From Escherichia coli (GTDB lineage Bacteria; Pseudomonadota; Gammaproteobacteria; Enterobacterales; Enterobacteriaceae), in assembly GCF_003334405.1 (NCBI RefSeq), contig NZ_QOWM01000014.1: a stretch of DNA of 64,000 nt. One strand, given 5' to 3'. The position numbers and the translations under genes are program-made. Below are positions 49,161 to 52,210 of this stretch, one piece after another. Positions within the stretch are counted from its first letter, which is position 1. Each line of letters starts with the position of its first letter. A model generated the notes under the pieces. It did no database searches. It had not been told where the DNA came from and saw nothing but the letters and a program-made list of their open reading frames with translations.

Positions 49161-50816
49161 ATGGAATTTTCGTTTTCACCCAAACGTCTTGTTGTTGCTG
49201 TCGCCGCCGCTCTTCCTCTCATGGCCAGCGCAGCAGATACCCCGTCAACTGCCACCGCACGCAAAGGCTTTGCCGGATACGATCACCCAAACCAGTATCT
49301 GGTTAAACCGGCGACCACTATTGCCGACAATATGATGCCAGTAATGCAGCATCCGGCGCAGGATAAAGAAACCCAGCAGAAGCTGGCAGAACTTGAGAAA
49401 AAAACCGGTAAGAAACCGAATGTGGTTGTTTTCTTGCTGGACGATGTGGGCTGGATGGACGTCGGTTTTAACGGTGGCGGCGTGGCGGTGGGTAACCCTA
49501 CACCAGATATCGACGCCGTTGCCAGCCAGGGGCTGATTTTAACTTCGGCGTATTCTCAACCAAGCTCTTCCCCAACCCGCGCCACCATTCTCACCGGACA
49601 ATACTCCATCCACCACGGCATTCTGATGCCGCCAATGTACGGGCAACCGGGCGGGCTGCAAGGGTTAACCACGCTGCCGCAGTTGCTGCACGATCAGGGC
49701 TACGTCACTCAGGCCATCGGAAAATGGCATATGGGGGAAAACAAAGAGTCGCAGCCGCAGAACGTTGGCTTTGATGATTTCCGTGGCTTTAACTCGGTGT
49801 CTGATATGTACACCGAATGGCGCGACGTTCACGTCAATCCGGAAGTGGCCCTGAGTCCGGACCGTTCTGAATACATCAAGCAATTACCGTTCAGCAAAGA
49901 TGACGTTCATGCGGTGCGCGGCGGCGAACAACAGGCCATTGCCGACATTACGCCGAAATATATGGAAGATCTGGATCAACGCTGGATGGACTATGGCGTT
50001 AAGTTCCTCGACAAGATGGCGAAGAGCGATAAACCATTCTTCCTCTACTACGGCACTCGTGGCTGCCACTTCGATAACTACCCAAATGCGAAATATGCGG
50101 GTAGCTCTCCGGCACGCACCTCGTATGGCGACTGCATGGTGGAGATGAACGATGTGTTCGCTAATCTGTATAAAACACTGGAGAAAAACGGTCAGCTTGA
50201 TAACACGCTGATCGTCTTTACCTCCGATAACGGACCGGAAGCCGAAGTACCGCCGCACGGACGCACCCCGTTCCGTGGTGCGAAAGGTTCGACCTGGGAA
50301 GGCGGCGTTCGCGTACCGACTTTCGTTTACTGGAAAGGGATGATCCAACCGCGTAAATCTGACGGTATTGTCGATCTGGCAGATCTCTTCCCTACCGCGC
50401 TGGATCTGGCAGGGCATCCTGGAGCGAAAGTGGCGAATTTAGTGCCGAAAACCACCTTTATCGATGGTGTGGACCAGACATCCTTCTTCCTGGGAACAAA
50501 TGGTCAGTCTAACCGTAAGGCCGAGCACTACTTCCTCAACGGTAAACTCGCTGCTGTGCGTATGGATGAGTTCAAGTATCACGTCCTGATTCAGCAACCT
50601 TACGCTTATACCCAGAGCGGATATCAGGGTGGATTCACCGGCACAGTAATGCAAACGGCGGGATCGTCGGTGTTTAACCTCTACACCGATCCGCAGGAAA
50701 GCGACTCCATCGGCGTGCGCCATATTCCGATGGGTGTACCGCTACAGACCGAAATGCACGCGTATATGGAGATCCTGAAAAAATATCCACCACGCGCGCA
50801 GATTAAATCTGACTAA
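49161..50816 (+). CDS. aslA: Arylsulfatase-like protein (putative sulfatase)
   Basis: Track ORF 551 aa with signal peptide and sulfatase signature region [15 protein letters not shown]. Confidence 0.92.
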
Positions 50817-50844
50817 GCCGGCGCTATCGCTGAGATCTGCCTTT

Positions 50845-50949
50845 GCCGGATGCGATGCTGACGCATCTTATCCAGCCTACAGAACGCTGCAATTTATTGA
50901 ATTTGCACGATCATGTAGGCCGGATAAGGCGTTTACGCCGCATCCGGCA
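50845..50949. repeat. BIME: two inverted REP-like palindromes
   Basis: gccggatgcgatgctgacgcatcttatccagcctac and gtaggccggataaggcgtttacgccgcatccggca between convergent aslA and aslB. Confidence 0.8.
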
Positions 50950-50974
50950 ATCAACCGCAGGCGGCCGCCGATTT

Positions 50975-52210
50975 CTACTTACTCACCACCAGCAAATGCG
51001 CATGCATAATGTCGCTGGCCGGGCGACCGTGCGCCAGCAAATCAGCCATTGCTTTAAGATATGGCGGTAGATGGCGGAAATAACGCTGATACCCGGCACA
51101 CAAATAATTCAGTCCCGGTTTGCCGCTGGCATCGAGCATGAAGCGGTGTTTCGGGCAGCCTCCCCAGCACGCTTTTAACACGTTACAACTGCGACACTGC
51201 GCCGGTAACTGCTTAAATTTATCTTCACCAAACGCCTGCTGTTGCGGGGAATCGATCATTTCTGCAATTGTTTGCTGGTGCATATTCCCCAGCCGATATT
51301 GCGGATAAACATAGTGATCACAGGCGTAAACGTCGCCGTTGTGCTCAACAATCACCGAGCGCCCACAGGTTGGCTGATGATGGCAAACCGCACCCGGCGC
51401 ACCGACAAAATTGGCAAACGCCCATTCGATATTCATCACGAAAATCTTGCCGACGTCGCGTTTGATCCAGTGGTCGAATATCGCCACCAGAAACTCACCG
51501 AACTCCTCGGGGCGCACCGACCATTCCGTTAGCTCACCCTGAATATCACCAGGCGCATGTAACTTAAGTCCATCGCGGGCAGTTGTTTCATCAGCCAGGC
51601 GCTCGACCACCGGAATAAACTGGATGAATTCGACTCCCGCATCGCACAAAAAATCATATACCTGCAACGGTTGCTGCGCGCTGGTGCGATTAACGCAGAC
51701 CAGCACGTTATAGTCGACATGATGTTTTTGCAGGAGCGTCAGGGCACGCATCACCAGCTTATGCGTGGGTCTGCCACCTTTAGTCACGCGATATTGATTG
51801 TGGATCTCAGGCGGGCCATCCAGCGATAAACCAACAAGAAAATGATGCTCCGCGAGAAACGCGCACCATTCGTCATCCAGCAGCACGCCGTTAGTCTGGA
51901 AGCTGTTACTTATCTTCCTGCCAGCACCATATTTCGCCTGTAGCGCTACGGCACGGCGGTAAAACGCCAGCCCGAGTAGCGTTGGTTCGCCGCCCTGCCA
52001 GGTAAAAGCCACTTCGTTTTGCGGTTCGCTGGCAGCGATATAGTGACGGACATACGCTTCCAGCGTGTCATCGTCCATATGCGTGACTGGCTTTTCGCGG
52101 TAAAGGGATTGTTTTTCGAGATAAAAACAGTAGTCACAGTTCAGATTACAATCGGAACCGCTCGGTTTCGCCATCACATGAAAAGCACGCGTTGGAACCT
52201 GTTGCAGCAT
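50975..52210 (-). CDS. aslB: Anaerobic sulfatase-maturating enzyme homolog (radical SAM)
   Basis: Track ORF 421 aa trimmed to MLQQVPTRAFHVMAKPSGSDCNLNCDYCFY... (411 aa); CxxxCxxC radical SAM motif. Confidence 0.92.
   Translation of the reverse strand: MLQQVPTRAFHVMAKPSGSDCNLNCDYCFYLEKQSLYREKPVTHMDDDTLEAYVRHYIAASEPQNEVAFTWQGGEPTLLGLAFYRRAVALQAKYGAGRKISNSFQTNGVLLDDEWCAFLAEHHFLVGLSLDGPPEIHNQYRVTKGGRPTHKLVMRALTLLQKHHVDYNVLVCVNRTSAQQPLQVYDFLCDAGVEFIQFIPVVERLADETTARDGLKLHAPGDIQGELTEWSVRPEEFGEFLVAIFDHWIKRDVGKIFVMNIEWAFANFVGAPGAVCHHQPTCGRSVIVEHNGDVYACDHYVYPQYRLGNMHQQTIAEMIDSPQQQAFGEDKFKQLPAQCRSCNVLKACWGGCPKHRFMLDASGKPGLNYLCAGYQRYFRHLPPYLKAMADLLAHGRPASDIMHAHLLVVSK

Follow-up and report, generated by a model that had tools for sequence, protein, structure and literature searches.

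The aslA-aslB locus of Escherichia coli: a Ser-type sulfatase gene and its predicted anaerobic maturase

The prototype of a sulfatase with serine at its formylglycine position, served by a radical S-adenosylmethionine (SAM) maturase, is the AtsA/AtsB system of Klebsiella pneumoniae, in which AtsA is an established arylsulfatase. For the anaerobic sulfatase-maturating enzyme (anSME) of Clostridium perfringens, anSMEcpe, the native client is a Cys-type sulfatase. Enzymes of the anSME family cleave SAM, abstract the C-beta hydrogen from the target Ser or Cys, and pass an electron out through auxiliary clusters (PMC7771511). On the sulfatase side, PsFucS1 of Pseudoalteromonas sp. belongs to subfamily S1_13 of SulfAtlas, desulfates fucoidan oligosaccharides, and has Cys111 as the residue that its authors describe as catalytic (PMC8484680). 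We here compare with these systems the aslA-aslB locus of Escherichia coli, which occupies positions 49161-52210 of a 64,000-nucleotide stretch (contig NZ_QOWM01000014.1 of assembly GCF_003334405.1; the whole stretch is referred to below as the window).

The two genes match b3801 (aslA) and b3800 (aslB) of strain MG1655 base for base, and the annotation of that genome calls their products "putative sulfatase AslA" and "putative anaerobic sulfatase maturation enzyme AslB". In the bacterium that has been studied best, they form a textbook case of two enzymes that are annotated but uncharacterised. The locus was already known, as were its Ser-type signature and the anSME partner; a preliminary description of the window, made from the sequence alone, interpreted them correctly and added nothing new. 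Our results are best explained if AslA is the precursor of a Ser-type sulfatase that is matured by AslB, an explanation that we consider likely as a whole and in which the modification itself is a prediction. They sharpen an existing open question and leave the current understanding unchanged; a deletion polymorphism and a conserved gene neighborhood, both described below, are modest additions to a known locus.

Catalytic residues of AslA and AslB

The aslA coding sequence (49161-50816, plus strand) is a 551-amino acid open reading frame for an S1 (formylglycine-dependent) sulfatase precursor. Residues 86-418 of the product match the Pfam Sulfatase family (PF00884) with an E-value of 1e-71, and this match, together with that of AslB to TIGR03942 (E-value 1e-155), excludes a chance resemblance for either protein. 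AslA matches 73 sulfatase sequences of the PDB at E-values of 1e-5 or below; its closest solved relative is PsFucS1 (PDB 7AJ0), which aligns over the full length with an E-value of 3e-101 and 38% identity.

A pattern search retrieved the sulfatase signature S136-S-P-T-R140-A-T-I-L-T-G146 at 49566-49598 on the plus strand, with Ser136 as the predicted formylglycine precursor. The core pentapeptide S-S-P-T-R covers residues 136-140 (49566-49580), and the codon of Ser136 is TCT (49566-49568). The preliminary description had pointed to this pentapeptide and had expected serine instead of cysteine at the critical position. Pairwise alignment bore this out, placing Ser136 opposite Cys111 of PsFucS1 and opposite position 69 of human ARSA, which is the formylglycine site of that enzyme. 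In 120 clusters of homologues the same column holds Cys in 84, Ser in 33 and a gap in 3, and nothing else, so that no other residue emerged as the catalytic one. The homologues share the motif QPS[C/S]SPTRATI[M/L]TG, in which P138 and R140 are invariant and column 136 is the only one to switch between Cys and Ser. The 33 Ser-bearing clusters are also the closest relatives of AslA.

The remainder of the active site is equally well kept. Alignment identified D94, D95, K188, H190, H303, D356, N357 and K375 (49440-50285, plus strand) as further active-site residues, corresponding to D29, D30, K123, H125, H229, D281, N282 and K302 of ARSA, and D94, D95, D356 and N357 also have counterparts in Asp69, Asp70, Asp334 and Asn335 of PsFucS1. 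These eight residues and R140 are each conserved in 117-119 of the 120 homologues. A second pentapeptide of the same type, SSPAR (residues 315-319, 50103-50117), was considered as a formylglycine site and rejected: 102 of the 120 homologues have Arg at its first position, and the match is a chance one.

At the N-terminus, where the preliminary description had noted a signal peptide, inspection revealed one of the Sec type. It spans residues 1-24 (49161-49232, plus strand), with an n-region containing K8 and R9, a hydrophobic core at residues 10-20 (mean Kyte-Doolittle value 2.7) and a predicted cleavage site after A-S-A (residues 22-24); no twin-arginine motif was seen in the AslA N-terminus. 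Ser-type orthologues have the same signal-peptide layout. As far as sequence can tell, aslA is therefore predicted to encode the precursor of a periplasmic, calcium-dependent Ser-type S1 sulfatase, which forms one part of the explanation given above.

The signature codon also carries a trace of the history of this position. The TCT codon of Ser136 is the same in four other E. coli lineages, and the Ser-type orthologues use TCA or TCT, with AGT in the deltaproteobacterial one. TCT and AGT each lie one step from the Cys codon TGT, and this codon usage suggests that more than one independent switch from Cys to Ser may have occurred in the AslA family. A Ser-type protein at 60% identity (P0119) is another candidate for such a switch.

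The partner gene aslB (50975-52210, minus strand) encodes 411 amino acids from its ATG and belongs to the radical-SAM/SPASM anSMEs. It scores 518.3 bits against TIGR03942, the equivalog model of anaerobic sulfatase maturases, for which the cut-off is 349.45, and 468.5 against PRK13745, slightly under the cut-off of 484. Pfam detects a Radical_SAM and a SPASM domain (the latter with an E-value of 6e-12), and the protein aligns end to end with anSMEcpe (PDB 4K36; E-value 4e-64). The CX3CX2C radical-SAM cluster motif reads C21-N-L-N-C25-D-Y-C28 (52127-52150, minus strand) and stands opposite Cys15, Cys19 and Cys22 of anSMEcpe. A residue-by-residue alignment places the catalytic Asp, together with the eight cysteines that ligate the auxiliary clusters, in the SPASM region (51098-51385, minus strand). 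The ligands of auxiliary cluster I are C276, C282, C297 and C352 (C255, C261, C276 and C330 in anSMEcpe), those of auxiliary cluster II are C339, C342, C348 and C371 (C317, C320, C326 and C348), and D298 corresponds to the catalytic Asp277, with the cluster-ligand numbering of anSMEcpe taken from PMC5682303. All 11 cluster cysteines and Asp298 thus align between the two enzymes.

The aslA and aslB genes are convergent, and their stop codons are separated by a 158-bp spacer (50817-50974). Since this spacer contains two repetitive extragenic palindromic (REP) units in inverted orientation, and has a median of 31 matches per genome in 5,426 complete E. coli genomes, we assign it as a bacterial interspersed mosaic element (BIME), located at 50838-50952. 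Its inverted repeats lie at 50843-50854/50939-50950 (12 nucleotides, 100% identical) and at 50867-50895/50900-50928. The preliminary description had read a CNLNCDYC motif typical of anSMEs in AslB and a convergent arrangement across a BIME; the motif is present at residues 21-28, the anSME assignment agrees with the model score, the domains and the anSMEcpe alignment alike, and the arrangement follows from the open reading frame positions, the inverted REP units and the genome-wide repetition of the spacer. The gene order of the region, hemX-hemY-glmZ-aslA-aslB-proM-leuT-hisR-argX-thrP, is that of E. coli K-12.

From what is known of the two enzyme families, we infer the following course of events. 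AslB, a radical-SAM/SPASM protein with three [4Fe-4S] clusters, would bind the unfolded S136-S-P-T-R segment of AslA in the cytoplasm, before export through Sec. It would then cleave SAM reductively and take the C-beta hydrogen of Ser136, and an electron would leave through the two auxiliary clusters to yield C-alpha-formylglycine. Mature AslA would be exported and would hydrolyze a sulfate ester by means of its formylglycine, which in the hydrated form is kept in place by the metal ligands D94, D95, D356 and N357 and by R140, K188, H190, H303 and K375. Given the oxygen sensitivity of anSMEs and the H-NS site in the aslA control region (see below), we expect the pair to work chiefly where oxygen is absent and repression is lifted, as in the gut; this would explain the absence of activity in routine culture.

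Conserved pairing, purifying selection and a natural aslA deletion

The pairing of the two genes is conserved well beyond E. coli. An AslB orthologue, at 57-68% identity, adjoins the Ser-type AslA orthologue in all six informative loci (the window included), as compared to one of five Cys-type loci (p = 0.015, Fisher test, on a small sample). The bias runs in the direction expected from the rule that an anSME is required by Ser-type sulfatases. The five Cys-type loci comprise one with a gene for a formylglycine-generating enzyme (FGE) downstream, one with both an FGE gene and a radical-SAM gene, and three with neither. Outside E. coli, the Ser-type pairs come from a betaproteobacterium, a deltaproteobacterium, Enterobacter and two metagenome contigs. 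A convergent radical-SAM/SPASM gene lies directly downstream of the sulfatase gene in Uliginosibacterium, in the deltaproteobacterium, in Enterobacter and on one metagenome contig; next to a distant Ser-type orthologue (60% identity, on a metagenome contig) the maturase gene is co-directional and overlapping.

The Salmonella enterica orthologue (locus L003) is Ser-type and 84% identical to AslA. Its contig stops 122 bp past the sulfatase gene, which makes it uninformative on the maturase, and it was left out of the pairing count. The genes around it match the malic-enzyme, transaldolase and transketolase Pfam families, and neither hemY nor the tRNA cluster adjoins it; enterobacteria therefore differ in where the module sits on the chromosome.

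A comparison of E. coli lineages (with a synonymous divergence, dS, of up to 0.3) gave ratios of non-synonymous to synonymous divergence (dN/dS) of 0.02-0.03 in aslA and 0.05-0.09 in aslB, and the five lineages examined all have Ser136. Selection on both genes is strongly purifying, and neither is decaying. Because the catalytic residues are kept, the maturase is linked and selection is purifying, the pair is very probably functional.

This conservation coexists with a widespread natural deletion. Of the 5,426 complete genomes, 3,694 have aslA at full length, and the remainder (about 32%) keep only its first 139 bp; the deletion allele was also found in 19 of 59 chromosomes that were sampled at even spacing along the ranking. 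The deletion removes about 1.57 kb (49300-50872 in the window), and joins a REP-like stretch inside aslA (nucleotides 105-139 of the gene, encoding KGFAGYD...) to REP1 of the BIME, the right-hand breakpoint, at a common TATC. All six deletion loci that were inspected share one and the same junction. In addition, three strains with a K-12-like middle part of aslB carry the deletion haplotype across the final 190 bp by the junction. In view of the identical junctions, and of the junction-proximal haplotype shared by these mosaic alleles, we rejected independent recurrent deletions. Both observations point to one REP-mediated deletion event that later spread by recombination.

In contrast to aslA, aslB is found at 80% or more of its length in 5,425 of the 5,426 genomes. 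Its 411-codon open reading frame is intact in all 17 aslA-deleted strains sampled (loci L002, L014-L018 and L025-L035), which represent 11 haplotypes. Within the main deletion haplogroup, aslB has accumulated 3 synonymous and 8 non-synonymous polymorphisms, a ratio that does not differ significantly from neutral drift (p = 0.45). These cluster in codons 204-246 and 403-410, a distribution that looks like recombination tracts.

Several smaller differences surround the deletion. In the part of the spacer that adjoins the stop codon of aslB, deletion strains carry GGCCACAAAATGGCCGCTTTTTT, a hairpin followed by a T-run (L002, 4200-4245), and K-12 carries GGCGGCCGCCGATTTC (window 50950-50974), so that the 3' end signal of aslB differs between the haplotypes. 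In two deletion strains (L014, 1-252; L018, 1048-1745), the insertion sequence (IS) IS1 lies upstream of what is left of aslA, at a distance of about 50 bp. Insertions within the genes themselves were also seen, with IS1 in aslA of strain SW071611 and ISApl1 in aslB of strain E423.

The history of the deletion bears on the way aslA has been used in epidemiology, where it is widely scored as a virulence or invasion gene after Hoffman et al. 2000. In isolates from inflammatory bowel disease, aslA co-segregated with epithelial invasion and was described as "acquired" (PMC11879602). Contrary to that wording, the presence of aslA is ancestral, and its absence is a derived, lineage-marking deletion. 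Since this absence goes back to one old event, correlations with presence or absence of the gene may reflect phylogeny and not function, and aslA may be linked to invasion simply as a marker of phylogeny.

Control of the locus and alternative explanations

Upstream of aslA lies a divergent control region of 424 bp (48737-49160), shared with glmZ and having a GC content of 32.5%, which is the probable location of the aslA promoter and of an H-NS site. Earlier work counts the aslA-glmZ spacer among H-NS sites and gives it RpoD promoters facing both ways; its candidate promoter for aslA, TTAACA-18-TGTAAT, lies at 48776-48805 in the window (PMC3946193). H-NS at this site may silence aslA. Our own scan for promoters and terminators found 3 promoter-like sites as compared to 4.6 expected, and hence no enrichment. 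The GlmZ small RNA itself (Rfam RF00083, 218 bits) is encoded at 48530-48736 on the minus strand, between hemY and aslA.

On the other side of the locus, AAGGAG is found 6 nucleotides 5' of the aslB ATG. An alternative start at a TTG (52240) is disfavored, as orthologues align from residue 1 of the ATG start. The tRNA-Pro gene proM, the last of the argX-hisR-leuT-proM cluster, lies 146 nucleotides upstream of the aslB start on the same strand, and the region between the two genes (52211-52357) contains a terminator-like hairpin at 52330-52351. Transcription of aslB could start from a promoter in this short gap or result from read-through.

A number of observations weigh against maturation of AslA by AslB as the function of the pair. 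Our literature searches gave only genomic surveys, with no report of an AslA substrate, of sulfatase activity or of formylglycine in this protein, and both products are still labelled "putative" in the MG1655 reference genome. The two genes are convergent and not co-transcribed, and their coordinated expression is an assumption. The deletion of aslA in about 32% of complete genomes implies that AslA is dispensable in many niches, and the persistence of aslB without aslA implies that AslA need not be the only client of AslB. Finally, E. coli was reported to modify only cysteine under usual expression conditions (PMC6189696), and the conversion of Ser to formylglycine by AslB in vivo is therefore a prediction.

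Deletion mutants of aslB and ydeM were reportedly described by Benjdia et al. in 2007, as cited by later papers. In papers that cite this work (including PMC6189696), the Cys-modifying machinery of E. coli is described as still unidentified, and a third system is suspected. Over-expression of AslB was found to raise the activity of human IDS and GALNS, both Cys-type sulfatases, up to 4.6-fold (Almeciga-Diaz et al. 2017, as that study is cited in PMC11215262). The preliminary description had called the function and substrate of the pair a long-standing open question. This is right insofar as both products are labelled putative and our searches found no paper that names a substrate, but it is slightly overstated in view of the AslB evidence with human sulfatases.

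These points bring forward three other explanations. AslB could be a general maturase whose important client, either in place of AslA or alongside it, might be YdeN or some unrecognised substrate, the adjacency of the two genes being historical. Its distribution is in line with this idea, since aslB is found in 5,425 of the 5,426 genomes and full-length aslA in 3,694, and all 17 aslB genes are intact in the aslA-deleted genomes sampled, over 11 haplotypes. E. coli also has another Ser-type sulfatase, YdeN, with the signature S132-G-P-S-R, whose ydeN-ydeM pair is found in 5,323 of the 5,426 genomes. Moreover, anSMEs contact chiefly the backbone of their substrates and serve many sulfatases (PMC7771511), and AslB activates human sulfatases, going by the study cited in PMC11215262. 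However, YdeN has its own adjoining maturase, YdeM (41% identical to AslB), and AslB orthologues adjoin AslA orthologues in all six informative Ser-type loci, which span several bacterial classes. The retention of aslB after the deletion may also reflect too little time for decay, given the 3 synonymous to 8 non-synonymous changes (p = 0.45). We regard a general maturase as doubtful, although worth serious consideration.

The pair might otherwise be a cryptic, silenced remnant that lacks a present function in E. coli, as could be read from the deletion of aslA in about a third of the genomes, the listing of its AT-rich promoter region as an H-NS site, the "putative" annotations and the occasional IS insertions in both genes. 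This is quite improbable, because dN/dS values of 0.02-0.03 for aslA and 0.05-0.09 for aslB at a dS of up to 0.3 reflect long-term purifying selection; all catalytic and cluster residues are intact, and Ser136 is the same in the five lineages examined. Alternatively, AslA might work with an unmodified serine nucleophile, much as alkaline phosphatase does, and need no formylglycine: a choline sulfatase of the Cys type retains turnover when it is left unmodified, and E. coli was reported not to modify serine (PMC6189696). Such unmodified enzymes, however, are 5 to 2500-fold slower (PMC6189696). The surroundings of Ser136 are the exact recognition signature of anSME and FGE, the same as in Cys-type relatives, and an anSME gene adjoins every informative Ser-type orthologue, making the use of unmodified serine very improbable. 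A Ser-type AslA matured by AslB is thus the explanation that we favor.

Substrate leads and comparison with known systems

The AslA family shows striking conservation across several phyla, with 60-80% identity from the Enterobacteriaceae to Legionella, the Burkholderiales, Bacteroidota and Myxococcota. In four of the 10 loci outside E. coli (L005, L008, L009 and L021) the AslA orthologue is preceded by a gene for a Phenol_MetA_deg outer-membrane protein, and three of these four also encode a conserved protein of about 270 amino acids (51-71% identity between loci). A type III alkylsulfatase gene occurs in two loci. None of these three genes is present in the E. coli window, and a search of NCBIfam gave no match that names conserved neighbor proteins such as the 270-amino acid one. 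As a lead, this gene context hints at small amphipathic sulfate esters as the AslA substrate. A broader and speculative proposal would be that AslA represents an unusually conserved family with an ancestral neighborhood of an outer-membrane channel (Phenol_MetA_deg), the 270-amino acid protein and alkylsulfatase, that its substrate is a small amphipathic ester (an alkyl, phenolic, steroid or bile-acid sulfate) and not a sulfated glycan, and that AslB has been kept, in the third of E. coli without aslA, for a second, AslA-independent client; taken as a whole we consider this proposal unlikely.

The answers would matter beyond the locus itself. Knowing the substrate and the maturation status of AslA would show whether the virulence associations of aslA are causal, and whether AslB or YdeM is able to carry out Ser-type maturation in E. 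coli bears on the recombinant production of gut-bacterial and human sulfatases.

Among solved sulfatases, PsFucS1 shares with AslA the two-domain fold, the calcium ligands and the position of the nucleophile. It differs in being Cys-type (Cys111), thermostable and hexameric, and in its marine source. Since the identity is only 38%, its fucoidan specificity cannot be transferred to AslA, and the link from this best PDB match to SulfAtlas S1_13 serves as a lead and is not a family membership.

AslB resembles anSMEcpe (PDB 4K36-4K39) in all three cluster motifs and in Asp277, over an end-to-end alignment. Unlike anSMEcpe, it contains an additional loop (some 15 residues, around 203-246); its C-terminal tail is longer, and its predicted client is Ser-type whereas the native client of anSMEcpe is Cys-type.

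The AtsA/AtsB system of Klebsiella appears similar: its sulfatase is periplasmic, with Ser as the residue to become formylglycine, a Sec signal peptide and an S-x-P-x-R...LTG signature, and a three-cluster radical-SAM/SPASM maturase is encoded next to it. The atsB and atsA genes form an operon, in contrast to the convergence of aslA and aslB across the BIME.

Within K-12 itself, ydeM-ydeN (b1497/b1498 of MG1655; L019, 2634-5525) constitutes a second Ser-type sulfatase/anSME pair. YdeN has a signal peptide as well as its S-G-P-S-R motif, and is only 27% identical to AslA; YdeM carries its CX3CX2C motif at residues 12-19. The ydeN and ydeM genes are co-directional, adjacent and near-universal (98% of the complete genomes), whereas aslA and aslB are convergent, with aslA missing from about one-third.

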